Source of the DNA: an archaeon
GTDB lineage: Archaea; SpSt-1190; DYHY01
NCBI GenBank assembly: GCA_043803745.1
Contig: JAZDJS010000019.1
Span: 1 to 64,000 of the forward strand
DNA length: 64,000 nucleotides
Direction: 5' to 3'
This document shows positions 25,257 to 44,030 of this stretch, piece after piece; the first letter of the stretch is position 1, and the number at the start of each line of letters is the position of its first letter. The position numbers were made by a program, and so were the translations under genes. Below the pieces are notes generated by a model. The model ran no database searches and had not been told where the DNA came from. It was given only the letters and a program-made list of their open reading frames with translations.

Positions 25257-25261
25257 AAGAA

Positions 25262-26212: not shown

Positions 26213-26263
26213 CCTTGCCAAAGTAACCCGAACTTATTTAAACTAACTCCGGCTAATTCCTCC

Positions 26264-26527
26264 GTGGCAAGGCAGATAGCAATGAACCTGACGGTGAACG
26301 AGTATGCCAGCCGGGTCCTTGGCGTAATCAAGGAGAGATACGGCCTGCGGGACAAGGCTGCCGCGCTTGAGAAATTCGCGGAACTTTACGGTACGGAGTT
26401 CGTCGAACCTGAAGTGAATGAGGAAACTGTCCGGGAAATAGTGGAATCCTGCAATGCCCACGTTAAAAAGCACGGAATGAGGAAGCTGTCCCTGAAGGAG
26501 CTTGACCGGCTCTCGGGAGCAGATTAG
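26264..26527 (+). CDS. Antitoxin (DUF2683-like)
   Basis: RVLGVIKERYGLRDK..EPEV; upstream of a RelE toxin. Confidence 0.75.
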   Translation: MARQIAMNLTVNEYASRVLGVIKERYGLRDKAAALEKFAELYGTEFVEPEVNEETVREIVESCNAHVKKHGMRKLSLKELDRLSGAD

Positions 26528-26531
26528 GGAT

Positions 26532-26813
26532 TTGGACCAGTTCACCTTCGACCTTTCCGATCACCTGAGGGAAACCCTGGGGAAACTTGCGAAAAAGGAT
26601 CGGAAAAGGGCTCTGATTCTCAACAAGAAAATCAGGGAAATAATTTCAAGTCCCTCGGGAATTGACCATTACAAGAACCTGAGGCATGATCTTTCGGATT
26701 ACAAGCGGGTGCATATTGACTCGAACTTTGTCCTTTTTTTCAGGGTTTTCCGGCGGGAAAAACACATCCTTTTCGAGCGGCTTGAGCATCACGACCGGAT
26801 ATACCGAAAATAG
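26532..26813 (+). CDS. relE: RelE/StbE family toxin
   Basis: YKNLRHDL, KRVHI, HHDRIY; TTG start. Confidence 0.85.
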   Translation: MDQFTFDLSDHLRETLGKLAKKDRKRALILNKKIREIISSPSGIDHYKNLRHDLSDYKRVHIDSNFVLFFRVFRREKHILFERLEHHDRIYRK

Positions 26814-26863
26814 GGGAAACTTCCCCTCCCAACGAATAAATAGCCGGTTTCCTTCTTCCTGGC

Positions 26864-29064
26864 ATGGCCGAGCCCTACTCCCTGATAATTGCCGAAAAGC
26901 CGAACGCTGCCGGAAAAATCGCCCAGGCTCTTGCGGATGGGGGCGTCAGCATACAAAAGCACGGAAAGGTCTCGGTCTTCGAGCTTTCCCACAAAGGGAA
27001 AAGATTGTCGTTGTCTCGGCAGTCGGGCACCTCTACGGCCTTGCCGAGAAGGACAAGGGAAGGTGGACATACCTAGTCCTTGAAACCAAGTGGGTTCCCG
27101 TCTGGGAGTCCAACAAGGGCGCCGGCTTCGCAAGGCCGTATCTTTCGGCAATCCAGAATTTCTCCGAGGGCGCTAGCGAGGTTTACAACGCAACAGACTA
27201 TGATGTCGAGGGCGCCGTGATAGGGTATAACATCCTCAAGTTCGCCTGCGGAAGGTCGGACGCCCGCAGGATGAAATTCTCAACCCTTACCGCGCGGGAG
27301 CTCCAATTCGCTTTCGAGAGCGCGGCAGAGCACCTGGACTTTCCCCAGATCGAGGCGGGGCTTGCAAGGCATGAATTGGACTGGCTCTATGGGATAAACC
27401 TTTCGCGCGCCCTTACCCTTGCGATAAAGAAGGCTGGGAGATGGCAGGTTCTTTCGACCGGGCGGGTCCAGGGTCCCGCTCTTGCGCTCCTTGCAAGGAG
27501 AGAGCGGGAAATCGCGGCTTTCAAGCCAACCCCCTACTGGCAGATCGAGCTCCTTACTGAGAAATCCCGGCAGGGAATAAGCGCGCTCCATGTCGCTGAC
27601 AAGCTCTGGGACAGGAAAACGGCTGATGAAATAATCCGGAAAACCTCCGGGGCTGAGAGTTGCACCGTTTCAAATATTGAAAAGAAAACCTATTCCCAAG
27701 CGCCCCCGACGCCCTTTGACCTGACAAAGCTCCAGACCGAGGCATACCGGCATTTCGGTTTCGCTCCGGCGCGCACGCAGTCGATTGCCCAGGCGCTCTA
27801 TGAAAAGGCGCTCATAAGCTATCCAAGGACGAGTTCGCAGAAGCTTCCAGCGCGCCTGAACCTCAGGGAGATTCTTGTCAGCCTTTCCAGGCAGAAGAAA
27901 TATTCCGAGCCTGCCGGGATGCTTGCAGCCAAGGAGGGATTGAGACCGAACGAGGGGAATAAGGAGGATCCGGCGCATCCCGCAATACATCCGACCGGCG
28001 AGAGGCCGAAAAGCCTCACTGAAGAGCAAGGCAAGCTCTACGACCTAATTGTCCTCCGGTTCCTAGCCGTTTTCGGCGAGCCTGCCGAGAGGGAGACTGT
28101 TACTGCAACCTTCGATGTCAATGGCGAGCTTTTCTCGGCAGCGGGACACACTACGACAAAGGCCGGATGGATTGAGCTCTATGGTCCCTATGCAAAGTTC
28201 GAGGAAAACACGCTTCCCGCCCTGAAGAAGGGGGAACCCCTTCCGGTGAATTCAATAAACCTCCTTTCCAAGGAAACCGAGCCCCCGCCAAGGTATAACG
28301 AGGCAAGCCTTATCCGGGAGCTTGAGAAGGAAAATCTCGGGACGAAGGCAACTAGAGCCGACATAATCCGGACTCTCTATTCCCGCGGCTATGTCGCCGA
28401 AAAGAAGATTGTCGTAACTGAACTTGGCATGGCTGTTGTCGAATCCCTTGAGAAGAACGCTCCGAAGATAATCTCCCCGGAGCTCACAAGGGAGCTCGAG
28501 GGAGAGATGGAGAACATTGTCGCGGGCAAAACTAAACGGGAGAGTGTTATCGACCGGGCGAAGAAGGTCCTTGTCGAAACCCTCGAGGGCTTCCGGGAAA
28601 AGGAGAAGGAGGTCGGAGAAATCCTGCTCAAGGGCCTTCAGGTAACCCAGAAGGTGAAGGAAACCCTCGGAGCCTGCCCGTCCTGCGGCGGGACGCTCAA
28701 GATTGTCTTCAACCCAAAAACGAGGAAGAAGTTCGTCGGCTGCTCCGGCTATCCTACCTGCAAGAATGCATATCCGCTCCCCTCCGGGTTGATTGAAACG
28801 ACTGAGAAGGTTTGCGAGTTCTGCAGGGCGCCGGCGATAAAGGTGATCCGGGCAGGTAAGAGACCGTTCGTGATGTGCCTGACAGTTGAATGCGAATCGA
28901 AGAAGGATTGGGGGAAGAAAAACCCGCCCGGGACAGGCAACGAAAAAAGAAGCGCTGCGGCCATATTGACAAGTGTTCCGAACAAGGAAAGAATCCAGCT
29001 GGTCGATGAAGAAGGTGAGAAGGATACTTCTTCGGCTGACGAAGGGATTGGAGAAGAAAAATAA
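26864..29064 (+). CDS. topA: DNA topoisomerase I (type IA), with a 1-nt frameshift near 27000
   Basis: IIAEKP in one frame; AVGHLY, DYDVEG, STGRVQ, SYPRT and zinc ribbons in the -1 frame. Confidence 0.9.
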
Positions 29065-29087
29065 AAACTCCTTCCCCGCTCACGCGC

Positions 29088-29762
29088 TCAAACTGAAAGG
29101 GAAATCAGGTTCCCCCTCGCCTTCTCCGCGGAGGCATAGTTGTCAGGGTCTTTGTATGCGTTCCCTCTTGCCGAGATTCCCCGGTAAATATTCCCTGCGC
29201 GGTGGACCTTGCTGCACACCTGTCGGGCTTCAACTATCCGTTCCGCAATTCTCCTGCGTCTCTCAACTGCTTCGTGCGGAGTCATGCTTCGCTCCTCTTC
29301 CTCGCCGACGACTTCAAGCACGGTCCGCCCAGTCTCGTCCCAGGCAAGCTTCAGGGGCGCCGTGTATTTTTCTCCGGTGAGGGCGAGGACTGCCTCCTCT
29401 AATTCCGGTCCTCCGCTCACGCGCGCCTCTTCCAGGACTGCCTTTTGCAGGCAGGCGGCAAGGTATGCATCCGCTTCCGGAACGTACTTGATTTCAAGGC
29501 GGTATTTGGCAGATGGAGCTATTTTTTCCAGCTCGGCGTTGAGCCCGGCAAGGACCTCGGAGCGGGGCGCTTCAGCTGAAGCTGAATAAATCTCTCTGTC
29601 TGCGTGGATTGCCTGAAGCCTTTTTTCCGGACCAATCTTAAGGTGGACTTTCCTGACCGGCGCAGGTTTTTCCCTGGTGCTCGAACTGCTTCCCATTCCC
29701 GGCTGCCAGAATCCGGGGAGGATTACCAGGGCAAGCAGGATTGCTGCCGCAAGTTCCATCAT
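29088..29762 (-). CDS. Hypothetical secreted or membrane-anchored protein
   Basis: N-terminal hydrophobic segment; 224 aa. Confidence 0.6.
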   Translation of the reverse strand: MMELAAAILLALVILPGFWQPGMGSSSSTREKPAPVRKVHLKIGPEKRLQAIHADREIYSASAEAPRSEVLAGLNAELEKIAPSAKYRLEIKYVPEADAYLAACLQKAVLEEARVSGGPELEEAVLALTGEKYTAPLKLAWDETGRTVLEVVGEEEERSMTPHEAVERRRRIAERIVEARQVCSKVHRAGNIYRGISARGNAYKDPDNYASAEKARGNLISLSV

Positions 29763-29881
29763 TTCCCTACACCCTCCCGGTTCTTTCCGCTTACGTTGCC
29801 AGCCAGAATTGCCGCGGAAATTCCCTCGGAAGCTCCGTAGGCAGTTCTAGCTGACTTTTTCTTTCCCGTATTTTCATTCAT
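29759..29881 (-). CDS. Small hypothetical protein (40 aa)
   Basis: MNENTGKKK...; ATGA overlap with the next gene. Confidence 0.35.
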   Translation of the reverse strand: MNENTGKKKSARTAYGASEGISAAILAGNVSGKNREGVGK

Positions 29882-30162
29882 TTTTTTTCGTTCCTTTTTT
29901 CTCTGTTGTTCCGACTGACAAAAACAAATCAGTTCAAACTCCGGTCTGCAGCCTACTTGGCTGAAGAATCAAGACAGTCCCTTTCGGAAGGCTCTCGCAA
30001 TCCTTAGTCAGAAACCGCAATCCTTAGCGGAGTTGTTTTTCCTAATCCGCGAAGGAGAAGGTGCCGCTAAATGAGAATACCTGCTTCAATTCAGCACCTG
30101 ATTTTTCCATTTGACAGTATTGCCTACTCGTCCTATTTTAATTTTCCGGTGTAACTGGGCGG

Positions 30163-30693
30163 TCACACTTTTCCGGTCCTCGCGTTCGTCTGGTTGGCTG
30201 GCGCTGCTCCCGCCTCAAGCATAGCAATACAATATTTATCGTGGATGAAAGCGCTGGCTGCCGGGGAAATTTCTGCCAGCAACCTGGGATATATTTCGGA
30301 TGGCTCCCCCGTAACTGAACTTGCTTCATCGGCAAGCAGCGCATATGCCAAAGCGGTTTTCGTCGGGTCGCCCCGTCCCATTAGGGCGGGGACATATTCA
30401 GGGTGGGTGTTCCCAAATCTCTCCATTCTCCCCTTGACAAGGCAATTCGAAAGATATCCGGATGCCTTTTCGTCAATCGCGAGAACTGAAATGGCTTTTC
30501 CGTTTCTGGCGTAAGTTCCAAGAAGGAAATCAGAAAGCTCCCGCAGGACGGTGTAGTCTGCTTTTCCATTGGGGATTTCTCGAACCTGCTCTCCGTTGCA
30601 GACAATTGTGATTGCTTTGCTGGTTTCAGCTATAGCTATCACTACTGTGCCAGGAATTTCTTCAGCCGGTCTTCTCTCTTCCGTTTCTGCCAT
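30163..30693 (-). CDS. Hypothetical protein
   Basis: 176-aa ORF. Confidence 0.6.
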   Translation of the reverse strand: MAETEERRPAEEIPGTVVIAIAETSKAITIVCNGEQVREIPNGKADYTVLRELSDFLLGTYARNGKAISVLAIDEKASGYLSNCLVKGRMERFGNTHPEYVPALMGRGDPTKTALAYALLADEASSVTGEPSEIYPRLLAEISPAASAFIHDKYCIAMLEAGAAPANQTNARTGKV

Positions 30694-30825
30694 TTTTCTT
30701 CAGTCAGTTCGAAACGCGGTTCTCCCGTGGTCAAGGTTCATTGGCATTCAGACGGCTGCCTCCCCTTGATTTTTTTTCTCGCTCTTCTATTCTTTCTTAC
30801 TCTCCTTTCCCCCTCCCCTTCTCAA

Positions 30826-31122
30826 CTACTGATTCAGGAACACGTTCTCCCTCGCAACATTGAGTCTGTATCCGTGGACGCGTCCGAAAGCCTCCATGTT
30901 TATCTGGTAGGTCTGGGACTGCTTCGGGTTCTCGTGCCTGTGGGACGCGAGAGCCTTGACTATTTCTCCCACAAGGACAGCCTCCGACCCAATCATCTCA
31001 TCCGGATTCTCCGCGAATTGGAAATACCCCGCCTCGCGGAGGGCTGCGGAAACATGGTCCTTGTGCGCCCAATCTGACGCAGCGACCGGCCCCTTTGCCC
31101 CCAACTTGAAGTAGTATGGCAT
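30826..31122 (-). CDS. Hypothetical protein
   Basis: 98-aa ORF with GAGG RBS. Confidence 0.55.
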   Translation of the reverse strand: MPYYFKLGAKGPVAASDWAHKDHVSAALREAGYFQFAENPDEMIGSEAVLVGEIVKALASHRHENPKQSQTYQINMEAFGRVHGYRLNVARENVFLNQ

Positions 31123-31134
31123 CCGGACCGCGCC

Positions 31135-31305
31135 TCACTCCGCCTCCCCTATTCCTCCCCCGCCATCTTCCTCAAGCTCGGGCGGGACCTGCACTTCCAT
31201 TCCCATTGAAGCCTCTAGAGAGCTCGCCAGGAGGTCGAACTGCATCTTGTTAAGGGAGAACTCCTTCGCCCCAACAACTATCTTCACCATTCTGTTTCCT
31301 TCCAT
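31135..31305 (-). CDS. Small hypothetical protein (56 aa)
   Basis: MEGNRMVKIVVGAKEFSL...; AAGGAG RBS upstream. Confidence 0.45.
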   Translation of the reverse strand: MEGNRMVKIVVGAKEFSLNKMQFDLLASSLEASMGMEVQVPPELEEDGGGGIGEAE

Positions 31306-31816
31306 TTTGTTTTCTTCTCCTTATTCTGTTTCTTCTTTCTACTGGGGAAAAATAAATGTCCTGGGTTGACCTGAGAATCAAACACGGGCTTGATTTTTTC
31401 AGCCAGCCCCTTCCTTCAAAATTTGCGTTTTTTCACGCGCCCTATTGTCCAAGATGACTTGGAGTTTCGGACGCGCTTATTCCCGCGTTTCCCTTTCCTC
31501 AGAACTTGAGGAAATCGGTTCCGCCAATGACACGGACCTGTTTTGTATTGTCCGGCATCCGGCGGAAACAGACGTGGTTTTCCCCTGTAAGGGAGATAGA
31601 CCAATAGCTACCTGGATTGGATAGAACCTGCTGACTTCCAGATAGCTGTTCCATTTCTGGGATGTATTGCCCCCTCATCCTATTTTAATCTTTCCCTGGG
31701 CGCAATTCTGTACCTACTGACGAAATATCGCGCAATTTTCGTGGGATGGTGTATTACCGCAATTTTTCAGAAGAGCTTTAAAAAACGGGCGTCTGATTGG
31801 AACGGGCAAATACGAA

Positions 31817-32896
31817 ATGGACATCGAAGAGAGAATCAACCTGATCAAGCAAGTCGGCGAGGAAATCCTGACTGAGGAAGAGCTTCGGGAGCTTTTGCAG
31901 AACAAGAAGACGCCGATAGCCTACGACGGCTTCGAGCCCTCCGGACAATTGCACATTGCCCAGGGCCTCCTGAGGACGATAAACGTAAACAAGATGACGC
32001 AAGCCGGATGCAGGTTCAAGATGTGGGTTGCCGACTGGCACGGCTGGGCGAACAACAAGATGGGTGGCGACCTGGAGAAGATCCAGCTTACGGGCAAATA
32101 CCTGATAGAAGTCTGGAAAGCCTGCGGGATGGACTTGAAAAATGTAGAGTTCGTCTGGGCTAACGATGCAATCCCCAGCAGGGAATACTGGAAACTCGTC
32201 ATGCAGATAGCTAGGAATTCCACACTCAACAGGATAATCAGGTGCGGGCAGATAATGGGAAGGAAGGAAAGCGAGGTAATGCAGGCATCGCAGATCCTCT
32301 ACCCTTGCATGCAGGCGGCCGACATCTTCTATCTCAAGGCGGACATCTGCCAGCTGGGACTGGACCAGCGGAAGGTGAACATACTCGCACGGGAGCTCGG
32401 CCCGAAGCTCGGCTTCTGGAAACCGGTTGTCGTGAGCCACCACATGATGATGGGCCTTGGCAAGCCGCCTGCAAGCACCGGGGGCGATGCAATTGAAAAG
32501 GCAATTGAGATGAAAATGTCCAAGTCGAATCCGGACAGCGCGATATTCATGACTGATTCGCGCGAGGATATTGCGAGGAAAATAAAGAACGCATTCTGCC
32601 CGGAAAAGCAGGTTGCGGAGAACCCGGTCCTCGAATACTGCAGGTTCATCCTTTTCGAAAAGTTCAAAACGCTGAAGATAGAGAGGCCGGAGAAATACGG
32701 CGGGAATTTAGAAATCGCAAGCTATCCTGAACTTGAAAGTCTTTTTGCGGGCGGGAAGCTTTCCCCGGTAGACCTGAAGGGCGCCGTTGCCGACCACCTT
32801 GACAAGCTCGTTTCCCCGGTAAGGGAGCATTTCGAGAAGGACAAGCACGCAAAAGAGCTAAAAGAGCAAGTTGAGTCTTTCCAGGTAACTAGGTAA
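31817..32896 (+). CDS. tyrS: Tyrosyl-tRNA synthetase (archaeal type)
   Basis: YDGFEPSG, HIAQ, YPCMQAAD, GLDQRK, KMSKS. Confidence 0.96.
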   Translation: MDIEERINLIKQVGEEILTEEELRELLQNKKTPIAYDGFEPSGQLHIAQGLLRTINVNKMTQAGCRFKMWVADWHGWANNKMGGDLEKIQLTGKYLIEVWKACGMDLKNVEFVWANDAIPSREYWKLVMQIARNSTLNRIIRCGQIMGRKESEVMQASQILYPCMQAADIFYLKADICQLGLDQRKVNILARELGPKLGFWKPVVVSHHMMMGLGKPPASTGGDAIEKAIEMKMSKSNPDSAIFMTDSREDIARKIKNAFCPEKQVAENPVLEYCRFILFEKFKTLKIERPEKYGGNLEIASYPELESLFAGGKLSPVDLKGAVADHLDKLVSPVREHFEKDKHAKELKEQVESFQVTR

Positions 32897-32899
32897 GGA

Positions 32900-33271
32900 C
32901 TAGATTCTTCCGGATTCCGCAACAGTCCGTTTTTCCTTGACTGCTCCGGTGTTAATTGTCGTCTTGGGCTCTATCAAGATAACGTGAACCTCTTTTTCTG
33001 CAACCGGTTTGTGTTCAACACCCTTCGGTATGACGACAAAGTCCCCCTCGCCAAGTTTCAGGTCCGCTTTTCTCAGCTTGATTGTCAGCTTCCCCTTCAC
33101 GACAAGGAACAATTCGTCTTCGTTCGCATGGTCATGCCAGACGAATTCCCCTTTGAGTTTGGCAACTTTTATGTGGGAATCGTTCAGATCCCCTATTATC
33201 TTCGGGGACCAGTGCGTTCTGAACAAGGAAAGCTTCTCCTTGACGTTTACGACCTTCACATCCATTTTCAT
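32900..33271 (-). CDS. Cupin domain protein
   Basis: GEFVWHDH.NEDELF, VIPKGVEHKP. Confidence 0.92.
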   Translation of the reverse strand: MKMDVKVVNVKEKLSLFRTHWSPKIIGDLNDSHIKVAKLKGEFVWHDHANEDELFLVVKGKLTIKLRKADLKLGEGDFVVIPKGVEHKPVAEKEVHVILIEPKTTINTGAVKEKRTVAESGRI

Positions 33272-33343
33272 TCTCGTTCCTCCGGAACCTCGCTTTGTGG
33301 CGCCCTGTATAAAACGGCATTGCCTTTTTAGTCAACAGAATGG

Positions 33344-34516
33344 TTAGCCGATTTTCGCCCTGTCGTCAAGGACTATTCCGGTGAGCTCGCCGACCGGGAC
33401 GTTGTAGAAGTTCCCCTCGCCGATTCCGGAAAGCTCCCTTGCGAGTTTCTCCCCTTCCTCGACAAGCCCGATTCCGGCAACCGAGATAGTTATCCCGGCG
33501 GCCGATGCCTTCTCAACCGATTCGCGCGCATCCTCGACTGGCTTTTCCCCCTCGGTCGGGAGGGCGTCCGTGATAAGGAGGATGTGTTTTGCCGATTCCC
33601 GGTCAAGGGCCCGAAGTATTTCCGCCGCAAGGAAAACCGCTTTTGCAATCGATGTGGTGCCCCCGGGGGTAAGGGAGACTATTTTCTCCGCGAAATACGG
33701 GACGTCCTCGGAATCCGAGAATTCGCAAATCAGTTCCGGCTCCTTCCTGAAGGCAATGACGGCAACCCGGTCAAGGGTCCCTATTGAAACCGCCGCAAGC
33801 CCGATTGCCGCGCGCTTGCAGGAATCGAGCTTGTCCCCCTTCATGCTTCCGGAGGAATCCAGGACGAAGACGAAATCGACGCCCGTCCTCTTCGTCATTT
33901 CCGAGGAGCGCAGGTCCTCCCTGATTATCCTCCCGTGCCCCCGCTTTGCGGCAACCGAGACCGTCCGCCTGATAGAGATCCGCTTGTAGCTGTGCCCCCT
34001 GGAATATGGAAGGGCTAGCTCGGTCCGTTCCTCAAAGCCGGAGGATTTCGCCGGATGGGTCCCGTGCCCGAGGCGGGAGAGTATTTCCAGCTCGTCCCGC
34101 AGGGTTTCCTCCGCGATTTCCTTCAGAGCCTTTTTGGTGAGGGCGCCGCCTTCTTTCGTGACATATCCCTCCGAGGAAAGGAGCTTTGAGCGCTTTTCAA
34201 TCCTCTCGGAAATCTGGCTGACCCGTTCAAGCTTCCCTTCTGAACGGCGGAGCTCGGAAATCGGCAGGCCTGTGAGGTCCTTGAGGATTTCGTCCCCATA
34301 TGTCCCGATAGCTGAATCGAGGTCGAAGACAATTGATCTTGCGACGAAAATCGCGTTAATCCCGGAGAGCCCGCGGTTGGCCATCTGCCTCAGGAGGGGC
34401 CCGAAGCTTTTCGTTTCCTTTTCGGGAATCTGCGAATCCTTGCTTGAAAATTCCTGCTTCTGCTCGCCGGAATCCTCGTCCTCGGATCCCCCGGATTTCT
34501 CGCCCGGGGGGATTAT
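33344..34516 (-). CDS. vWA domain protein with acidic linker; ChlD-like C-terminal part, predicted -1 frameshift extension of the upstream ATPase
   Basis: MIDAS motif DSSGSM, TPGGTT, LLITDA; frame stays open 44 codons upstream of ATG 34384, into the end of the ATPase gene. Confidence 0.85.
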   Translation of the reverse strand: MIPPGEKSGGSEDEDSGEQKQEFSSKDSQIPEKETKSFGPLLRQMANRGLSGINAIFVARSIVFDLDSAIGTYGDEILKDLTGLPISELRRSEGKLERVSQISERIEKRSKLLSSEGYVTKEGGALTKKALKEIAEETLRDELEILSRLGHGTHPAKSSGFEERTELALPYSRGHSYKRISIRRTVSVAAKRGHGRIIREDLRSSEMTKRTGVDFVFVLDSSGSMKGDKLDSCKRAAIGLAAVSIGTLDRVAVIAFRKEPELICEFSDSEDVPYFAEKIVSLTPGGTTSIAKAVFLAAEILRALDRESAKHILLITDALPTEGEKPVEDARESVEKASAAGITISVAGIGLVEEGEKLARELSGIGEGNFYNVPVGELTGIVLDDRAKIG

Positions 34517-34522
34517 TTTGGG
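34486..34522 (-). promoter_or_regulatory. Predicted -1 programmed ribosomal frameshift signal
   Basis: C_CCA_AAA heptamer in the zero frame, TAA, 5-nt spacer, stem CCCCCGGG/TCCGGGGG. Confidence 0.75.
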
Positions 34523-35523
34523 ACTTGCTGAGCAATCAAGGAATCGACAACTTCCGCCGGCTCTATCGAATGCCGGAATTTCGGGGAAAGCTTTATCCGG
34601 TGGTCGAGAACTGAATGGACGACTTCGAGGAGGTCGGACATCTCCGCCTGTTTCCTTCCGTTCGAAAGCGCCTGCCCCTGCACCCTTTCGTAAAGGCCTA
34701 TCGTCGCCCTCACGCCGGCGGGTCGCTCAATCCGCTCGTCTGCCCGGGTTGCCCGGACAATCGAGACTATTGCGGAAAGGACCTTTTCCGGAACCTTCAC
34801 GCCCTCTATCTTCGCGGACTTCTCCTCGGCGATCTTCTTCTCGGTTTCCGGGGTTTCGGGGAAATCCATCTTTATGAAATCGAGCCGGTCAAGAAGGGCC
34901 TCCGAAAGCTTCTCGGTGCCGGCGGACTCCTTCGGGTTCATCGTTGCAATCAGGATGAAATCGGTCGGGTAGTCGACCTCATAGCCGCTCACCGTGACGC
35001 GACCCTCCTCGAGAACCTGCAGGAGCGAATTCTGGAGCCGCTCAGGGCACCTGTTGATTTCATCGAAGAACAGGATGCCTCGGTGGGCGCGGAGGATCTT
35101 CCCCGGGGTGAACGCCCGCGAATCGCGCGGCCCGAATTCAAGCGCCTTGACCGGGTCAATGTCGCCAAGGAGGTCCTCCGGCTGGAGGTCCGGGGAGCCC
35201 TGGACCCGGATGAACCGCTTTATTCCGGGCGACTTTTCCGAAGCAAGCTTCTCCCCTTTCGCCTTCCTTTTCAGGCAGACCGGGCACACTGGATCGGCGG
35301 GGTCGCAGTTGAAATCGCATCCGGAAACGACCGGGATTTCGGGAAGGAGTCTTGCAACGGACTTGGCTAGCGTTGTTTTCCCAACGCCGGGATATCCGAG
35401 GATTGCGAAATGCCTCCCTGCGAGGATTGCCGAAATCGCTCCCTTCTTCGCGCCATCCTGCCCGAATATTTCGGGAAACGGGTCCTTATTTTTGGAAACT
35501 ATTGTCTTCTGAAAAGCGTCCAT
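34513..35523 (-). CDS. ChlI/MoxR-like AAA+ ATPase
   Basis: PFPEIFGQ, Walker A GYPGVGKT, CDFNCDP, Walker B FFDEINR, ATMNP, LLDRL. Confidence 0.92.
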   Translation of the reverse strand: MDAFQKTIVSKNKDPFPEIFGQDGAKKGAISAILAGRHFAILGYPGVGKTTLAKSVARLLPEIPVVSGCDFNCDPADPVCPVCLKRKAKGEKLASEKSPGIKRFIRVQGSPDLQPEDLLGDIDPVKALEFGPRDSRAFTPGKILRAHRGILFFDEINRCPERLQNSLLQVLEEGRVTVSGYEVDYPTDFILIATMNPKESAGTEKLSEALLDRLDFIKMDFPETPETEKKIAEEKSAKIEGVKVPEKVLSAIVSIVRATRADERIERPAGVRATIGLYERVQGQALSNGRKQAEMSDLLEVVHSVLDHRIKLSPKFRHSIEPAEVVDSLIAQQVPK

Positions 35524-35662
35524 TCCGGAAGCTTCCGGAGCCCTCTTTTATTTGTTTGGCTTCCTGTCCGAAAGGGCTCCGGAGCGGGTTCCCGGTTCGG
35601 TTCCTAGTTGGGTTCCTTTTTTGGGCGCTCAGTTTTAAAAACGAGAATGGGCCCATTTTCAG

Positions 35663-36289
35663 ATGGCAGGGAAGAAACTGAAGGCATCCGGCAAAGGTAA
35701 GAAGACGGAGGCTGCAAAACTCGTCCTGATTTTGGGGCCTTCCGGAGTCGGGAAAACCGCGGTAATCACAAGGGCAATCGAGGGCATGCCCGACTGCGTT
35801 GTCGTTAATTTCGGGCATCTCACGCAGCAGATGGTCGGGGACAGGGACAGGTTCAGGCGTGAAGCAAGTCTTGCGGACGCGAGGAAAATGCAGACCGCAG
35901 TTGCGAGGAAGCTCGAGGGCATGAGGAAGAAGGCCAAAGGGATTTTCATCGTGACATCCCATGCAGTGATGTTCCGCCCGTCAGGATTCTGGCCTGGATT
36001 CCCAAGATGGATTCTTGACGAGATTGACCTCAGCTCAATAGTCTTGATTTCCGGAATCCCCGAGGAAATCGCTGCAAGAAAGGCTGCGGATGCCGCTGCC
36101 GGAGTGAAGGACGGGCGGACACGGGACGAAACTCCCTTGGTGACAATCCTTGCCGAGCAGGAGATAGGGCGCGGGGCCGCATATGCATATTCGGCATATT
36201 CCGGGGCGGTAATCAAGGAGATAGTCAACAAGCAGGGGCTTCTTGACGAGGCTGCTTCCGACCTGAGGAAGGCGCTTGAGAAGCTTTGA
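35663..36289 (+). CDS. adkA: Archaeal-type adenylate kinase
   Basis: GPSGVGKT, VVNFG, DRDRFR, GFWPGFP, RTRD. Confidence 0.8.
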   Translation: MAGKKLKASGKGKKTEAAKLVLILGPSGVGKTAVITRAIEGMPDCVVVNFGHLTQQMVGDRDRFRREASLADARKMQTAVARKLEGMRKKAKGIFIVTSHAVMFRPSGFWPGFPRWILDEIDLSSIVLISGIPEEIAARKAADAAAGVKDGRTRDETPLVTILAEQEIGRGAAYAYSAYSGAVIKEIVNKQGLLDEAASDLRKALEKL

Positions 36290-36746
36290 TATGACTGGGA
36301 AGAGGGCGACCAAACAGCCAAAGCTTCTCGGGAAACGCGGGAAAATCTACCTTGTTGCAATGGCAATTGTCGAATGCAAAGGCAAAAAGCTGCTTTTAGC
36401 GAAAAGGTCGGACTGCCTGCTCTGGAATTTCGTCGGGGGAACGGTTGACTTTGGCGAGAATTCTTGGGAAACCGTCGCGAGGGAGGTTTTTGAGGAGACT
36501 GGGATACGGGCGCGCCAATCCGAGTTCAGGTTCCTTTTCGCCCAGGAGACGATAAGGCCGGAAAACGACCTCCACGCAATCTTCCTTGTCTACAAGCTTT
36601 CCCTGGGGGATTTTCCGGTTCTCAGGAAAAACGGCGAGAGCCTGGAATTCGGCTGGTTCCGTCCCGGAAAACCTCCGAAAGGACTGACGCCCGGTACGCG
36701 GGACGCGCTTGGAAATCTCTTGGCTGGGAAAAGCCGGACTGATTAA
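36276..36746 (+). CDS. NUDIX hydrolase
   Basis: GGTVDFGENSWETVAREVFEETGI. Confidence 0.88.
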   Translation: MRSFDMTGKRATKQPKLLGKRGKIYLVAMAIVECKGKKLLLAKRSDCLLWNFVGGTVDFGENSWETVAREVFEETGIRARQSEFRFLFAQETIRPENDLHAIFLVYKLSLGDFPVLRKNGESLEFGWFRPGKPPKGLTPGTRDALGNLLAGKSRTD

Positions 36747-36806
36747 TTCCCGCTTTTTTTCGCGAAAGTTTATATCTGCTTTCCCGGATATCCGCCCAAG
36801 AAACCA

Positions 36807-37589
36807 ATGGAACGCGCGATAAGGGACTGCCTGATTGTGATGATGAGCTGCGCAATTGCAGTTTTCCTCATCCCGATATCCGAGGAGAACCTGCTTTTCT
36901 TCTCCAGAAGCGTTCAGATAGTCTGCCTGATTGTTGCGGCGACTTTCTCCTATGCCTCAATACGCAAGTACAGCATCAGCAGCCTCCAAGGGAAGATTCT
37001 TTTCCTGCTTTTCGGCACATATTCCTTCCAGGTCATAACCGCTTGTTTCAGGTTCTATAACGAGGTCGTTCTCGGGAAGCTTCCTTCCTTGGTTGACCCC
37101 GTGCTTGCAATCCGGCAGGGGGCGATGTATGCGTTCCTCCTCCTGGGGGTGCTTATCGGCGGTCCCTTCCTGAGAAAGACAATGAAAGCGCCCTCCAAAT
37201 CAATGATTGCGCTGCCTGCGGCTTTCCTTGTGATTTCCGTTGCAGGATGCGCCGTTGCGTTCCTGAACGGAGTCCATTTGGGGAGCTTTTCTGAGCTCTT
37301 CTTTTTCCTTGTGATGCCTGTTGGGATGAATGCCGGGCTTTGGATCCTCTGCTCTTTCACCGCAAGTTTCGAGGGAGGCAAGCTCCAGCGTCCCTGGCTG
37401 CTCCTTGCACTGGGCATTTTCACCCAGCTTTCCGGCGACCTTGCTTTCAACTTAACGACCCGGATGGGCGTCTATTCGGTCGGCTCGGCAATCGACCTTG
37501 TCCAGATCGCCGGCTATCTCCTCGGGATATATGCCGTTTCCAAGTTCATATCGGTCATTGAGAATATCGAGTCCCAGCCGTTTTTCTGA
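36807..37589 (+). CDS. Multi-pass membrane protein (sensor-like TM domain)
   Basis: About 8 TM segments; PSLVD and YSVGSAIDL...GY motifs. Confidence 0.75.
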   Translation: MERAIRDCLIVMMSCAIAVFLIPISEENLLFFSRSVQIVCLIVAATFSYASIRKYSISSLQGKILFLLFGTYSFQVITACFRFYNEVVLGKLPSLVDPVLAIRQGAMYAFLLLGVLIGGPFLRKTMKAPSKSMIALPAAFLVISVAGCAVAFLNGVHLGSFSELFFFLVMPVGMNAGLWILCSFTASFEGGKLQRPWLLLALGIFTQLSGDLAFNLTTRMGVYSVGSAIDLVQIAGYLLGIYAVSKFISVIENIESQPFF

Positions 37590-37646
37590 ACAAAGGCGGC
37601 GAATCATTAAAGCCTGGGAAGAACCGGTTTTCCCGATTGGAAGAAA

Positions 37647-38033
37647 ATGGAAATGATGATAACTAGGATAAATCCGGCAGATTCCCCGAAGGTCATAGGC
37701 CCCTATTCCCAGTGCGTTGCTTCTGGGAACTTGGTATTTTCAGCCGGCCAGATTGGGATTGACCCGAAAACCGGGAAGCTTGTCGATGGAGGTTTCGCAA
37801 ACCAAGTGCGTCAGACCCTTGAGAACCTCCGGACAATCCTTTCTGCTGCGGGTTCGGGTCCTGAGAAAGTGTTGAAGGCGACAATCTACTTCACTGACCT
37901 TTCGAACTACAAGGAATTCAACGAAATCTACGCGGCGTTCTTTTCGGGCAATTTTCCCGCACGCGCGGCAGTCCAAGTCTCGGCTCTTCCGGCTGGCGCT
38001 CTTGTCGAAATCGACATAATAGCGACCCGCTGA
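37647..38033 (+). CDS. ridA: RidA/YjgF family deaminase
   Basis: IGPYSQ, AGQIG, FPARAAV, LP.GALVEID. Confidence 0.93.
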   Translation: MEMMITRINPADSPKVIGPYSQCVASGNLVFSAGQIGIDPKTGKLVDGGFANQVRQTLENLRTILSAAGSGPEKVLKATIYFTDLSNYKEFNEIYAAFFSGNFPARAAVQVSALPAGALVEIDIIATR

Positions 38034-38072
38034 AAACAATTTTAAACCCTCGGAAGCTTCTGAACTCCGAAA

Positions 38073-38143
38073 GCGGCCATAGTCTAGTGGCAGGATATGA
38101 GCTTCCCAAGCTTAGGACCCGGGTCCGAATCCCGGTGGCCGCA
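38073..38143 (+). tRNA. tRNA-Gly(CCC)
   Basis: GCGGCCA/TGGCCGC acceptor stem; TGAGC-TTCCCAA-GCTTA; atypical T-loop TCCGAAT; TTTAAA box upstream. Confidence 0.9.
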
Positions 38144-38338
38144 CTCGCCCCTCCCTTGGAAAAATGGTCCTCAGGCCATCCAGTCGAGACAGGACATCCG
38201 AGGGGCTCGTGGACTTCTCCAGTGCCGAGGCACGGATCCTCTGAGGAGGAGCCTCCTTACCGGGCAGCTCAGCCGCACCAGAACTCCCCGAAGGACGAAC
38301 TGAATTCATCGCAGGCTGTGGAAAGTTATATAAACTAA

Positions 38339-38356
38339 AGTTAACATATATTAACT
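38339..38356. promoter_or_regulatory. Inverted repeat, putative operator of the MNT-HEPN module
   Basis: AGTTAA-CATATA-TTAACT between the TATA box and the ATG. Confidence 0.5.
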
Positions 38357-39010
38357 ATGGTTAACATCTCAAAACTTGGGCTGAACTACCGCCAGGCAAA
38401 CAGACAAGGGCCTGGGAAGGTAGTTCATGTGAGGCGCTGTGCATCCCGCCCGCACGCGGAAAGGGATCATCTGGCGTCGCAACTAACTCGGCTGCAGCAT
38501 AGCATCCTCCGCCAGTTGTTCATCAAGGCTGGAACTGCCCTGACTGCCAGAGCCATTTCCCTTGCGTTGAACGTGTCGCAGCCTGCAGTGTCAAAGGCGC
38601 TTCCTAGGTTGCAAAAGGAAGAGCTGGTTTTGGTTGCAAAAGACAGGGCGACAAAGCGACTTGCCATCCAGCTCAACCGGGAAAACCCTCTCGCAATAGG
38701 GCTAAAGCGGGCGGACAACCTAAAGCAAATCTACGAGTCAGGGCTTTCCCAGTTCGTACAGGATAATCTTGCCGGATCGGTCGTCATCCTGTTCGGCTCG
38801 TATTCGCACGGAGAAGACGCTACCGCGTCAGACATTGACCTCGCCGTCATCGGACTGAAAGAAAAGGAACTGGACCTTGCGGAATTCGAGAAGAGGCTTG
38901 GCAGGGAGATAATCATGAACTTTTACGAGTCTTTCGGAAGAATAGACAAACCCTTGTTGGGAAACGTATTGAGTGGAATTGTGCTCAAGGGAGCGGTGGA
39001 ACTGCAATGA
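38357..39010 (+). CDS. HTH plus minimal nucleotidyltransferase (MNT) antitoxin
   Basis: HTH SQPAVSKAL; LFGSYSHGEDATASDIDLAV. Confidence 0.88.
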   Translation: MVNISKLGLNYRQANRQGPGKVVHVRRCASRPHAERDHLASQLTRLQHSILRQLFIKAGTALTARAISLALNVSQPAVSKALPRLQKEELVLVAKDRATKRLAIQLNRENPLAIGLKRADNLKQIYESGLSQFVQDNLAGSVVILFGSYSHGEDATASDIDLAVIGLKEKELDLAEFEKRLGREIIMNFYESFGRIDKPLLGNVLSGIVLKGAVELQ

Positions 39011-39438
39011 CCCTAAAAGAATTCAAGGAGTATCTCAAGACCGGCGTCGTGAAGAAGCAGGCAGCCAATAAGAACAGGGCGGCATCCCTGGTTAACGAAG
39101 CGGAAGAGAAGAAGGAGTTTCTAAAAGTCGCCTTGAAGAGCATTCCGACTGACCGGATGAACCCGAACTTTGTAGTTGAATCCTGCTATGACATCGTCAT
39201 GGAACTCGTGAGGGCGAAGATGTTCCTCTCGGGCTTGAACGCAAGTTCGCACGAAGCGGAGGTTTCCTACATGAGTGAACTCGGCTTTTCCGAGGCGGAC
39301 GTAAGGTTTGCCGACGACTTGAGATATGGAAGGAACGGAATAAAGTATTACGGCACAACCCACACGAAGGAGTTTGCCGAAAAAACGCTCGAGTTCATGA
39401 AGAAGGTTTATCCCAAGCTCAAGGAATTGCTGCGCTGA
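39007..39438 (+). CDS. HEPN domain protein
   Basis: SHEAEV, RNGIKY; ATGA overlap with the MNT gene. Confidence 0.78.
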   Translation: MTLKEFKEYLKTGVVKKQAANKNRAASLVNEAEEKKEFLKVALKSIPTDRMNPNFVVESCYDIVMELVRAKMFLSGLNASSHEAEVSYMSELGFSEADVRFADDLRYGRNGIKYYGTTHTKEFAEKTLEFMKKVYPKLKELLR

Positions 39439-39517
39439 AAACGGCTCTGTGTTTTTTGTGAGGGACCGCCCAAATCCCAGTTTTACGAATAGCTCTCCTA
39501 GACGCCGAGGACATACT

Positions 39518-39539
39518 GCCGCAGGTCCTCTGAGGAGGA
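39518..39539 (+). repeat. 22-bp copy of the tRNA-associated motif
   Basis: GCCGCAGGTCCTCTGAGGAGGA identical to 14545-14566; core also at 38237-38250. Confidence 0.9.
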
Positions 39540-39576
39540 TTTTTAGACACGCCCTCGGGGCCTCTATATGACAGAG

Positions 39577-40824
39577 TTATTCGAAAGGCAGGACTTCCAA
39601 TACCCGCTCTCTTGTTATCTCGCCGCCGGATACAAACAGCTCTCTAAGGGTCTCTACCTCAATCTTGTAGCTCTGCAGCTTGTTCTCCAAAATAAACAGC
39701 AGATTCTCTATCGTTATGAGGCTTATGGACTTGAGCCTTCCTGAATCTAGTTTGAGTTTCGTTAATTGCTCTGATTGTTCGCTAAATCCGCTAGAGACTA
39801 CCAAGAAGTGCGTTTCCAGACCTCTATTTTCGTGTTCTTTCAAGAAAGACCGAGAGTAATCTAGTATTGCCCTAGAGTCTTGTGTGTTTATCCGATAGTC
39901 CCTGCTACCTCTGGCCTTGCAGTCAACCAATATGGCATATTGAGTTTCGCTACCATATCCTTTAGCGATAAAGTCGGGATTTACTCCTTTCCCGGCACCC
40001 AACTGTTCCACTTTGTAGCCCAGCATTTTGAAAAGTATTCCTACCTTGCGCTCGAATTCCGCCGGGTTGCCCTCACTAACCGAAAGAGCCACAACATCCG
40101 AAAGTATGGGTGGTATGTAGCTGGCATCTGGCACGGCTGCCATTTGGATAGTTACAGGAGCTTTCCGTTCAATATTCTCATTCCGGGGCTTTTCTTGTTT
40201 TATCTTGTTGAAAAGATACCAAAAGAAAAGGTCGGCGTCTATGAAGTTCGCAGCAGGAAATCCGTTCTCTCTCAAAACATCCCTTACCAATCCGATGGCA
40301 TTAATGCATTCTTGATATGCCTCTCCATTCTTCAGCGGATATTTGAAATAAGAGGGCTGTAGAATGTCGAAACCTAACCAAGGCAAAACGGTCTTTGGTT
40401 TGTCGTTCCATAGGCAATTATTTTCTGGAGAGATAAAATGCAACATCTCCGTAATTGCTGAAGGACCGAGGCCTTGTATGTTCTTTCTAAAGTTGTCATA
40501 TCTTTTCGATAGATGCACCGATTCATTGTATAGGAGATCTTTCAAATTCTCCAATAGCTTATCTAGGCCGTTCTTTCCAATTATCTCATTGTCGAAGTAC
40601 CATTTCTTATTAGACCACATTTGACTGGCCCACAAAGATTCCCATGCTTTCTGGAGTTCGGTTTGTGAGAGCGTTGGAAGTTTTTCTTTCGATAGTAACC
40701 TTGCAATTTCCTCACCGTGCTCTCTGTGCTCTTTTCGCTCATTGCTGCCTTTACCAGACAACCACTCTTTGAATCCCCTCAGCTCAGAGATAACTCGGTC
40801 CTTCTGTTCTTGTGAAAGCAGCAT
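39577..40824 (-). CDS. Putative restriction nuclease with C-terminal FokI-like PD-(D/E)xK domain
   Basis: FERKV..LGY...PDF...VDCKA...FLVVSSGF; visibly lower GC than the flanks. Confidence 0.75.
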   Translation of the reverse strand: MLLSQEQKDRVISELRGFKEWLSGKGSNERKEHREHGEEIARLLSKEKLPTLSQTELQKAWESLWASQMWSNKKWYFDNEIIGKNGLDKLLENLKDLLYNESVHLSKRYDNFRKNIQGLGPSAITEMLHFISPENNCLWNDKPKTVLPWLGFDILQPSYFKYPLKNGEAYQECINAIGLVRDVLRENGFPAANFIDADLFFWYLFNKIKQEKPRNENIERKAPVTIQMAAVPDASYIPPILSDVVALSVSEGNPAEFERKVGILFKMLGYKVEQLGAGKGVNPDFIAKGYGSETQYAILVDCKARGSRDYRINTQDSRAILDYSRSFLKEHENRGLETHFLVVSSGFSEQSEQLTKLKLDSGRLKSISLITIENLLFILENKLQSYKIEVETLRELFVSGGEITRERVLEVLPFE

Positions 40825-41006
40825 AAGCCGGAAATCTGTCGTTAAAATATAAGCATTAGTCATGATATAGCAAGATTTCTCCCTGCGCAACAGACCGCCC
40901 ATTGCACTCCGGACACATCAGTCCAAGGCGCCTTGGATTTGTGCGATTTTGGCTAGGAAACTTCAAATTCCTTGGGATTTCCCTTTCAGATAGGAAGTGC
41001 GTCCTC

Positions 41007-41795
41007 TCATGCGTAGAGGGAAACCACTATCACGCAGAAGGGGTCGCCCATCCCGGAGCATTTTACTTCGACCGCGCTCACGGCCTTCCCGTAAAACTGG
41101 GAGAAGAACCCTTCCACAAAACCGGTCTCCAGATAGCACATGTTTATCCCAACGGGAGGGAGCCCGGACGCCGAAAGGGATTCCCGCATGTTTATCCTAA
41201 GCATTTCGTTCCGTCCCTCGCCTTTCTCTATCTCGAGCATGCCTAGGCCCAGTTCCCTGAAAAGCTTTGTCAGGATCCCGCCAACGGTTTCGACTGAAAT
41301 GGCGCCTGCTTGAGAATATATCGCCGTTCCCAGGCGCTTCCCCGCCTCCTTGAGGGCTCTGCTTGCCGCGTCAAAGCCCATTTTGTTGAACAGCACGGAA
41401 TAGATGAGTGTCCTGAAGACGTCTATGTGGACCCGCTCTTTCAATTCGCTTCTGAGCTTTTCCGGATTGGATATCAGGACGTTTGTTGGCCAGATTGAGT
41501 CATATAGCTCCACCTCCGAGATTGCCTTGCCTATGTCCCCCTTGAAATTTAGCGAAAGGAGGAAGGCCGTAAGGGCTGTGAGGAGTTTGAGACGGGATTT
41601 GTCCTCCCGGAGCCCCTCTTCCTGGTACATCGTGACCCATATCTCGCCTTTTTCGGTTATGATGACCTTCAGGCCGCTGCCTAGTTCCCCCCAGAGGGTT
41701 CCTGAAGCAAGCTCCCGCGCGTTTGTCAATTTTGGCTTTATCTCGTCAAGGTTCAGCCGCTCTCCGAGCTCGAGGGCATATGTCACAATTCCCAT
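41007..41795 (-). CDS. V4R domain protein
   Basis: GLGMLEI, CYLETGFVEG, EVKCSGMGDPFC. Confidence 0.85.
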   Translation of the reverse strand: MGIVTYALELGERLNLDEIKPKLTNARELASGTLWGELGSGLKVIITEKGEIWVTMYQEEGLREDKSRLKLLTALTAFLLSLNFKGDIGKAISEVELYDSIWPTNVLISNPEKLRSELKERVHIDVFRTLIYSVLFNKMGFDAASRALKEAGKRLGTAIYSQAGAISVETVGGILTKLFRELGLGMLEIEKGEGRNEMLRINMRESLSASGLPPVGINMCYLETGFVEGFFSQFYGKAVSAVEVKCSGMGDPFCVIVVSLYA

Positions 41796-41844
41796 GTTCG
41801 TTTGCGGGCGCGCTTACAATAAAAGATTTGTCGTCCCAAGGCGG

Positions 41845-42612
41845 CTATTTGGTCTTCCGCAAAAAGGCGGGTCTTCTGAATTTCCGGGAATCGGAAAGGA
41901 CTTTGGTCTTGACAAACTTGCCGTCCCTCATTTCGTGGAGGATGTTTGCGAACCTCACCGGAGACTTTCCGCTGAGGATTGCCGGGACAATGAAATCAAG
42001 GTCGGGTATCCTCTTTTTCTTCAGCATCTCTGAGACTGTCATGAAAGAGTTTTTTCCCTCCCTTTGGCTGCGAATTAGCTTCCCCCGCGGGTTGCTCCCA
42101 AGATACCAAAAGCCGACCGCATGGTGGACGCACTTTCCGCTCTCGGCGTTCAGGGTTACTAAGTTAGTTATCAGCTTGAGATTCAATTCAGCCTCAAGTC
42201 CTGTTTCCTCAAGAAGCTCGCGTCCAGCCTCGCCCTCGGGCTCGCTACCAAACCGGACCTTTCCGCCGACAACCCCTAGATAGCCTAGGAAGGGTTGATT
42301 TGCCCGCTCTTTCAGGAGAATCCGGCTCCTCCCGGGTCCCTTGGCAACGAGGACATATGCGCAGACAATCGGGTAATTCGCCCTCTCCCCAGTGCTGCCC
42401 TCGATTTTGCTCATAAGCTCCATTCCCCGGTCGGTCAGGCAATAGGATTTTCCGGGCGTCTTCTCAATTATTTTCCGGGAAAGGAGGTTCCCGAGATGGT
42501 ATGCGAACTTGCTTGAGGGCAAAAAGCCGCCGCGCAGCTCGTTATATGAAAAGCCCTTTCCCGTCTTGAGCTTCTTTAGGATTTCCCGCTCAATCCTGGA
42601 TTTCTCAGCCAT
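41845..42612 (-). CDS. wHTH-NUDIX fusion protein
   Basis: SSKFAYHL...YCLT; GGKVRFGS....GRELLEETGL. Confidence 0.85.
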   Translation of the reverse strand: MAEKSRIEREILKKLKTGKGFSYNELRGGFLPSSKFAYHLGNLLSRKIIEKTPGKSYCLTDRGMELMSKIEGSTGERANYPIVCAYVLVAKGPGRSRILLKERANQPFLGYLGVVGGKVRFGSEPEGEAGRELLEETGLEAELNLKLITNLVTLNAESGKCVHHAVGFWYLGSNPRGKLIRSQREGKNSFMTVSEMLKKKRIPDLDFIVPAILSGKSPVRFANILHEMRDGKFVKTKVLSDSRKFRRPAFLRKTK

Positions 42613-42709
42613 AATGCCCTTTGGGAAATCCGGGCGGTTTTAAAGACAAATGTAAAGGAATGTTGACAAGGGGCAGAATGCTTATTACGGGCCGCTACCT
42701 GGTAAGATT

Positions 42710-43207: not shown

Positions 43208-43255
43208 GTGTCTGGTCAGATGAACATTTAAGCCACTCTTGAGTGAGTTGATGGA

Positions 43256-43978: not shown

Positions 43979-44030
43979 ATGACCCCTTTTGAGGGGAAAT
44001 TTATAAGCGGAACTTCATTCTTCCGCTCCA

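Follow-up and report, generated by a model that had tools for sequence, protein, structure and literature searches.

Two adjacent open reading frames (ORFs) on the minus strand of an archaeal contig (GenBank assembly GCA_043803745.1, contig JAZDJS010000019.1) raise the question of whether they are two genes or a single gene read in two frames. The first encodes a ChlI-like AAA+ ATPase and ends at a slippery sequence; the second, in the -1 frame, encodes a protein with a von Willebrand factor A (vWA) domain. The stretch analyzed here, hereafter the window, comprises positions 1 to 64,000 of the contig (64,000 nt) and belongs to a genome (G000) of 1.23 Mb that is 90% complete. Its phylum is represented by 17 species in our collection, and the named orthologs nearest to the locus come from Woesearchaeota metagenome-assembled genomes (MAGs). 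An earlier note, made from the sequence alone, proposed that programmed ribosomal frameshifting (PRF) in the -1 direction, as known for chlD genes, produces two AAA+ subunits from this locus. This proposal is supported by the conservation of the signal in another species of the genus, by the signals of other split relatives, by the existence of fused orthologs and by the constraint on the linker between the two halves. Taken together, the two ORFs probably represent one recoded gene of the fs-chlD type, in which a -1 frameshift would yield a ChlD-like long product in addition to the ChlI-like short one. The locus is a further example of published fs-chlD recoding and not a new mechanism; what appears to be distinctive is a classical heptamer-stop-hairpin signal in place of poly-A, nested among fused orthologs.

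On re-reading, everything that the earlier note had said about the end of the ATPase ORF, the heptamer, the spacer, the stem and the -1 frame holds, coordinates included (Table 1). The elements of canonical -1 PRF are all present, namely a heptamer in register (C_CCA_AAA), a 5-nt spacer, within the usual 5-9 nt, and a stable downstream stem, which here consists of seven G-C pairs and one G-U pair and encloses a 7-nt loop (34502-34496). The stop codon TAA that abuts the heptamer could act as an additional ribosome pause. The sizes of the two predicted products, given in the note as 336 and about 726 amino acids (aa), were recomputed as 336 aa and 336+390 = 726 aa. The -1 frame indeed runs into the vWA ORF without a start codon at the junction: from the upstream stop of this frame onward, the first ATG, GTG or TTG is codon 45 (ATG 34384). 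The 44-codon linker at the beginning of the frame is therefore reachable only by a frameshift.

Several points, all from sequence comparison, argue that the region between TAA and ATG 34384 is translated. The linker can be aligned with its in-frame counterpart in a fused ortholog from the same family (G003). Comparison with the ortholog from the other species of the genus (G001) gives a ratio of nonsynonymous to synonymous substitution rates (dN/dS) of 0.30 for the linker, a value that rests on 44 codons with saturated dS (1.3), and of 0.083 for the rest of the -1 frame (346 codons, dS 2.6), which indicates purifying selection on the linker as read in the -1 frame. Leu42, which lies upstream of Met45 (the residue encoded by ATG 34384), is invariant in all eight orthologs of an 8-sequence alignment. 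Met45 itself is also kept in the fused orthologs and lies inside a helix (residues 39-47) of the AlphaFold 2 model of the -1 product. If this region is translated, it is translated without a start codon of its own, and a frameshift is therefore needed.

A search of our collection with the -1 product as the query, in which the frames were taken from tblastn with both halves, identified clear orthologs in eight other genomes (E 1e-54 or better); within the phylum, the gene is present in 7 of the 17 species genomes, including the source genome itself. The closest of these, G001, is split in the -1 relation and reads CTC CCA AAA TAA TC at the junction, so that the heptamer, the stop and the first spacer bases are identical to those of G000, and a hairpin with a 6(+2)-bp stem occupies the same place (-12.4 kcal/mol, matched by 1.97% of random windows). 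The two species share 74% protein identity in the ATPase and 69-71% in the vWA part, and the heptamer, stop and hairpin are kept despite saturated synonymous sites. The conservation of these three elements in orthologs, which the earlier note had proposed as a check, is thus found in G001, whereas the other split relatives have runs of nine or ten A residues. In particular, G002 of the same family is split in the -1 relation at an A9 run (GTA AAA AAA AAT TAG), and G006 and G008 of the same class at an A10 run (GCA AAA AAA AAA C.A GCG TGA). The -1 relation holds for all five split loci of the phylum, and each has a slippery run at the junction; these loci represent three genera and are kin, not independent cases. 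The gene is fused in G003 (746 aa), in which the aligned position shows neither a slippery site nor a comparable stem, and in G004 of the same order (751 aa), where no slippery site is seen. Fused forms are also found in G029 and G052 from other lineages (838 and 854 aa) and in the more distant G023 and G046.

The rarity of such an arrangement was assessed against 1683 mechanical ORFs of at least 150 aa across the genome. The -1 frame stays open for at least 100 codons past the stop in 324 of them, and 17 of these 324 have a heptamer among their final four codons. Eleven of the 17 show an ordinary ATGA-type overlap, with a start at codon 0, and only the ORF examined here combines a heptamer at the stop with a long start-less extension. 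In-frame C_CCA_AAA occurs 22 times in the same set. The 32-nt segment that contains the hairpin has a folding energy of -16.0 kcal/mol, a value reached in 0.22% of 6000 segments of this length drawn at random from the genome; over 91 nt the signal is weaker (z -2.7, dinucleotide shuffles). The codons of the site are uncommon as well: among ORFs of at least 300 aa, CCA is the rarest Pro codon (1223/12202), AAA is the minor Lys codon (5151/13551) and TAA is the least used stop codon (94 of 479 ORFs), and the chance that 'P K stop' is spelled CCA AAA TAA from codon usage alone is ~0.8%. Both species of the genus share CCA AAA TAA; the preceding codon differs (GTC vs CTC), with both ending in the C that completes the heptamer. 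The genome encodes tRNA-Pro(UGG) and an intron-containing tRNA-Lys(UUU), as identified by ARAGORN.

Three other explanations of the junction features were rejected. A missing tRNA is ruled out, given that tRNA-Lys(UUU) was found once introns were allowed; the hairpin is not a transcription terminator, there being no T-run after it; and transcriptional slippage is ruled out at this locus, where the A run is only four long. Because four A residues are too few for slippage of the polymerase, the ribosome is the likely slippage site; at the A9 and A10 runs of the relatives, transcriptional slippage is possible. A search of Rfam with positions 34200-34800 at E up to 1 produced 0 matches. As to the tRNA genes, those for tRNA-Lys(UUU), tRNA-Tyr, tRNA-Trp and tRNA-Ile(UAU) are found by ARAGORN only with introns allowed, and several tRNA genes of this genome carry introns.

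In the same genome, contig C11 contains on the plus strand (0-based 1576-2389) an ORF of 270 aa with C_CCC_CCG two codons before the stop, past which the -1 frame is open for 198 codons with the first start at codon 32. The sequence of this ORF end suggests another possible frame junction.

The domain identities of the two halves agree with the ChlI-like and ChlD-like assignments made in the earlier note. The ATPase contains the Walker A motif GYPGVGKTT, the Walker B motif LFFDEINR, an AAA lid domain and a ChlI-type insert (LLPEIPVV..FNCDP..) with four Cys residues. It matches the Pfam families Mg_chelatase (76.8 bits, cut-off 20.3), AAA_3 (80.2 bits) and AAA_lid_2 (32.1 bits), and its top solved relatives are ChlI structures, 8osf (E 1.4e-21) and 6l8d (E 1.3e-20), with alignments that span the insert. 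The -1 product matches the Pfam VWA family with 55.4 bits (cut-off 23.8) over residues 214-374 and retains an intact metal ion-dependent adhesion site (MIDAS) motif (DSSGS .. T .. D). In the AlphaFold 2 model of this product, which has a mean predicted local distance difference test score (pLDDT) of 80.7, residues 1-35 are disordered (pLDDT about 30), residues 39-148 form a helical domain and residues 166-390 a vWA fold. The top fold matches are NorD VWA domains of NorQ-NorD complexes (9qh8_G, E 1.4e-10, 277 columns). The best NCBIfam family for both halves is TIGR02442 (putative cobaltochelatase, 641 positions), which aligns with the ATPase at positions 2-193 (116.9 bits) and with the vWA half at positions 417-614 (60.8 bits), neither score reaching the cut-off of 779.45. 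The ChlD/BchD equivalog TIGR02031 scores 82.7 bits with the ATPase and 34.8 bits with the vWA half, again below its cut-off (499.55).

Within the ChlI-type insert, the four-Cys motif CDFNCDPADPVCPVC (window 35275-35320, ATPase residues about 69-83) is kept in 6 of 7 aligned orthologs, the whole segment being absent from G002, and is not found in cyanobacterial ChlI. Judging from its sequence, this motif could be a small zinc knuckle.

From the observed anatomy, conservation, coding constraint and domain identity, we infer slippage and the following course of expression. The majority of ribosomes would translate the AAA+ module and stop at TAA, releasing the 336-aa ChlI-like ATPase. A fraction would slip by -1 on C_CCA_AAA, where the hairpin that begins 5 nt further on, and perhaps also slow termination at TAA, would delay them. 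The slip might be in tandem, with tRNA-Pro moving from CCA to CCC and tRNA-Lys from AAA to AAA, or might involve peptidyl-tRNA-Lys alone on the run of four A residues; either route would lead to the identical junction ..QQVPK-IIPPGEK... The shifted ribosomes would then continue through the acidic disordered linker, the helical domain and the MIDAS-bearing vWA domain to complete the 726-aa ChlD-like protein. By analogy with BchI/BchD, CobS/CobT and NorQ/NorD, the two forms, which would share an active AAA+ module, should co-assemble into rings in a ratio set by the slip frequency, with the vWA/MIDAS arm holding a client protein.

Several observations weigh against this interpretation. A heptamer of the X_XXY_YYZ type directly before the stop is found in 20 of the 1683 ORFs, so that the heptamer alone is not rare. 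The 60-nt fold is unremarkable (z -0.8 and -1.0, mononucleotide shuffles), and the core of the stem, CCCCC/GGGGG, also codes for Pro-Pro (Ala-Pro in G001) and Gly-Gly in the -1 frame; for this reason, part of the conservation of the stem could reflect constraint on the protein. The exact C_CCA_AAA signal is present in one other genome only, and its conservation thus rests on two related sequences. With regard to the linker, apart from the few codons and the saturated dS noted above, the differences per codon position are 16/11/22, only a mild third-position bias. The efficiency of such heptamers has been measured in E. coli, not in archaea, and, according to the part of a 2021 review that covers the subject (PMC8211752), the fucA1 gene is the only case of -1 PRF demonstrated in an archaeon. 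Finally, G006 and G008 could be coupled separate genes, and some independent initiation at ATG 34384 is conceivable.

The last two points lead to the strongest competing explanation, in which the ATPase gene ends at TAA, the vWA protein is made independently with ATG 34384 as its start, either through internal initiation or with a promoter of its own, and the heptamer and the hairpin are incidental. No canonical start of the frame precedes ATG 34384, which has a GAGG 3 nt upstream, and in related machines such as NorQ/NorD the AAA+ and vWA partners are separate proteins; the frequency of heptamers before stops and the GTG that overlaps the stop in G006 and G008 fit this arrangement as well. 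However, the distance from the stop to the ATG is 129 nt, which is beyond the usual coupling distance of termination and reinitiation. Two further points against separate genes are the 44 open codons that align with fused linkers and show the signature of purifying selection, and the slippery run exactly at the junction of all split loci of the phylum. A start at 34384, which the earlier note had named as an outcome that would speak against frameshifting, is also made unlikely by the invariant Leu42 upstream of Met45, by the linker constraint and by the GAGG, which is missing in G001; Met45, for its part, lies within a predicted helix and is retained in the fused proteins as well. We accordingly regard separate genes as an unlikely explanation, if the best of the competing ones.

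A combination of both routes, with the frameshift yielding the 726-aa fusion and ATG 34384 yielding some free vWA protein, three products in all, would accommodate the evidence for recoding together with the start-like context. This context is not conserved in G001, though, and a protein that starts at Met45 would be deprived of half of helix 39-47 and of Leu42; three products appear less probable still than two separate genes. The least plausible explanation, a decaying or recently broken gene in which a one-base deletion in a former fusion, or an assembly error, has abolished production of the downstream part, could invoke the in-frame fusions in G003 (the closest relative outside the genus) and G004, among which the split pair nests, but it is very hard to reconcile with the identical split and site in an independently assembled genome of another species at saturated synonymous divergence, with two intact halves of 336 and 390 codons in which no internal stop occurs, with strong purifying selection on the vWA part, and with a break that coincides exactly with a slippery heptamer and the hairpin after it.

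The preferred reading, a single recoded gene, has close precedents. The note had referred to frameshifted chlD genes that give both subunits, and such genes are in print. The 'magnesium chelatase' cluster, as described in the relevant part of Antonov (2013, PMC3711429), comprises 23 -1 fs-genes from six genera, including Methanocaldococcus and Methanococcus, along with fused homologs, and the same source gives frameshifting of 10-63% on A7-A11 runs in E. coli reporters. According to the sections of Kuznetsov (2022, PMC9227772) that deal with their distribution, fs-chlD genes are found in archaea, proteobacteria and actinobacteria, with -1 commoner than +1; slippery sites rich in A and T, combined with a structure downstream, are the usual signals, and in some of the organisms neither the large subunit nor the chlorophyll and B12 pathways are present, the function of the complex in these cases being described as unclear. 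The present locus resembles these genes in the order of a ChlI-like AAA+ ORF followed by linker and vWA domain in the -1 frame, in the combination of slippery site and structure, in the presence of in-frame fused orthologs, in its archaeal host and in the lack of a detectable large subunit. It differs in that the tested and most often cited sites in those portions of the published work are poly-A (A7-A11), whereas here a classical C_CCA_AAA abuts the stop and is followed by a G+C-rich hairpin; in addition, the scores of the proteins against the NCBIfam ChlD/BchD and cobaltochelatase families fall far short of the cut-offs, and the split pair is nested among fused forms. We found no description of C_CCA_AAA in the chlD family in the literature searched, the supplements of the chlD papers being outside the search.

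In its signal, the locus is closest to classical bacterial -1 PRF of the dnaX and IS3/IS911 type, with an X_XXY_YYZ heptamer, a spacer of ~5 nt, a downstream stem and short and trans-frame forms, but the host is an archaeon. In E. coli, as reported in the pertinent part of Sharma (2014, PMC4066793), C_CC.A_AA.G is the most efficient heptamer, and C_CC.A_AA.A is shift-prone and under-represented. The archaeal precedent, fucA1, encodes the alpha-L-fucosidase of Saccharolobus solfataricus (PMC8211752, PMC1616953) and is likewise split between the zero and -1 frames with a slippery heptamer and a putative stem-loop; it belongs to another protein family, and the passages of these sources that concern it give only the full-length product as functional, in contrast to the present locus, where both the short and the long forms are expected to be subunits.

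Among the protein machines, BchI/BchD (ChlI/ChlD) and CobS/CobT share with the predicted products a ChlI-type AAA+ module with the LLPEI..FN.DP insert, an acidic Pro linker and a C-terminal vWA domain with MIDAS. Unlike in those systems, the active AAA+ module would here be common to the long and the short form, the scores are below the family cut-offs, and neither ChlH/CobN nor ALAD nor porphobilinogen (PBG) deaminase was found in this 90%-complete genome. NorQ/NorD (PDB 9qh8, 9qh6, 9qhd) provides the best vWA fold matches and combines an AAA+ ring with a VWA adaptor on the client, but the two proteins are encoded by separate genes, identity is about 20%, and the ATPase of the present locus is ChlI-like, not NorQ-like, NorQ being of the MoxR type. 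NorQD inserts iron into NO reductase.

The distribution of split and fused forms bears on how the signal evolved. In a tree of the ATPase (19 rows, midpoint root only, with two outgroup rows on long branches), the seven genes of the phylum form one group (support 87/87), in which the A10 pair branches first, followed by the A9 locus, the fused G004, the fused G003 and the C_CCA_AAA pair, with support of 100/99 and 99/98 for the last two forks. On this branching order, the heptamer-type split seems to have arisen within a fused background. A search with the ATPase alignment for related loci (600 stretches, 52 relatives) yielded, among the matches listed, four good orthologs, none from this phylum, and a metagenome scan with the -1 product (9 relatives in 591 stretches, none above 37% identity) revealed no further carrier of the exact signal. 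In G006 and G008 (L007:1235-1644 and L006:1311-1720), GCG_TGA comes two codons after the A10 run, and a GTG of the -1 frame overlaps the TGA, so that these loci could use slippage, GTGA-type coupling or both. The ATPase ORFs of L006 and L007 have long mechanical N-terminal extensions (459 and 564 aa).

A separate clade, represented by three Woesearchaeota MAGs, one MAG labelled Methanosarcinales and three metagenome contigs, two of them identical at the junction, has the vWA part in the +1 frame. The zero-frame ends in this clade are CCG_TGA_C, CCC_TGA_C, CCC_TGA_T, CTT_TGA_C (three loci) and GGG_TAA_C, with an ATG also in the overlap in L031. These are 'shifty stop' contexts like that of the RF2 site. 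A tentative scenario, to which we give somewhat less than even weight, is that the junction signal was replaced more than once, the phylum having poly-A runs, in-frame fusion and the nested new heptamer-stop-hairpin, and the sister clade +1 shifty stops, while the two-product output was kept. If so, strong selection would hold constant the proportion of short to long subunits of this orphan AAA+/vWA machine, which would operate without a tetrapyrrole chelatase, and the original job of this machine might be protein remodelling or metal-cofactor delivery.

The earlier note had found no chelatase large subunit in the window, and the same result is obtained for the genome as a whole, where a search for CobN/ChlH (PF02514) gave 0 matches, compared with matches in 5 of 14 reference genomes. 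ALAD (PF00490) and PBG deaminase (PF01379) also gave 0 matches each, with 11 of the 14 reference genomes matched as controls; at 90% completeness, zero matches are not proof of absence. Given that neither CobN/ChlH nor these early tetrapyrrole genes were found, the client is probably not a tetrapyrrole chelatase subunit, and the best description of the complex is, by analogy, that of an orphan AAA+/vWA remodeller or a chaperone for metal cofactors. Recoded chlD-like genes whose host has neither the large subunit nor tetrapyrrole synthesis are already a published puzzle, to which this locus contributes and which points to a probably older client of the AAA+/vWA motor. If confirmed, it would be a clean archaeal case of classical -1 frameshifting with a heptamer and a hairpin, at a site that is compact and easily mutated. 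For annotation, the two ORFs would belong together as one recoded gene, rather than as an 'ATPase' and a 'hypothetical vWA protein'.

Table 1. Features of the recoded locus, its neighbours and related +1 junctions (positions are those of the window unless a locus handle is given)
Feature	Position	Strand	Details
Zero-frame ORF, ChlI-like AAA+ ATPase (short product)	35523..34513	-	336 aa, C-terminus ..QQVPK
Last zero-frame codons	GTC 34524-34522, CCA 34521-34519, AAA 34518-34516, TAA 34515-34513	-
Slippery heptamer C_CCA_AAA	34522-34516	-	X_XXY_YYZ register; predicted P-site CCA to CCC, A-site AAA to AAA
Zero-frame stop TAA	34515-34513	-	abuts heptamer; end of short product
Spacer TAATC	34515-34511	-	5 nt
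Putative stimulatory hairpin	34510-34488	-	8-bp stem CCCCCGGG / UCCGGGGG; arms 34510-34503 and 34495-34488
Junction bases	inside 34300-34700		CCCAAAATAA
-1 frame	from 34516 to stop at 33344	-	reads IIPPGEKSGGSEDEDSGEQKQE..; open 390 codons
Acidic, Pro/Gly-containing linker	34516..34385	-	start of -1 frame; 44 codons without ATG/GTG/TTG
Helical domain and vWA domain	34384..33344	-	rest of -1 frame; ATG 34384 is the sole candidate independent start
Neighbour ORF	32900-33271	-	123 aa
Neighbour ORF	31817-32896	+	359 aa
Neighbour ORF	35663-36289	+	208 aa
Neighbour ORF	36276-36746	+	156 aa
+1-clade junction	L031:3047-3466
+1-clade junction	L032:3814-4233
+1-clade junction	L033:3748-4167
+1-clade junction	L034:3760-4179
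+1-clade junction	L083:1778-2037
+1-clade junctions	L085 and L086:1781-2040

The gene neighbourhood was compared by ORF-by-ORF BLAST of positions 25001-44000 of the window against 12-18 kb around the eight orthologs. No candidate client gene that travels with the pair was found in this comparison, and the neighbours that are shared, among them the 359-aa and 208-aa ORFs, are shared only inside the family. The four neighbouring ORFs listed in Table 1 are small and housekeeping-looking, none of them resembling a client or a chelatase subunit. Finally, an A/T-rich box, AAATAAAAG, is located on the minus strand at 35545-35553, 22-30 nt upstream of the ATG of the ATPase gene; by its sequence and position, it may be an archaeal TATA box, in which case the mRNA would be leaderless or nearly so.

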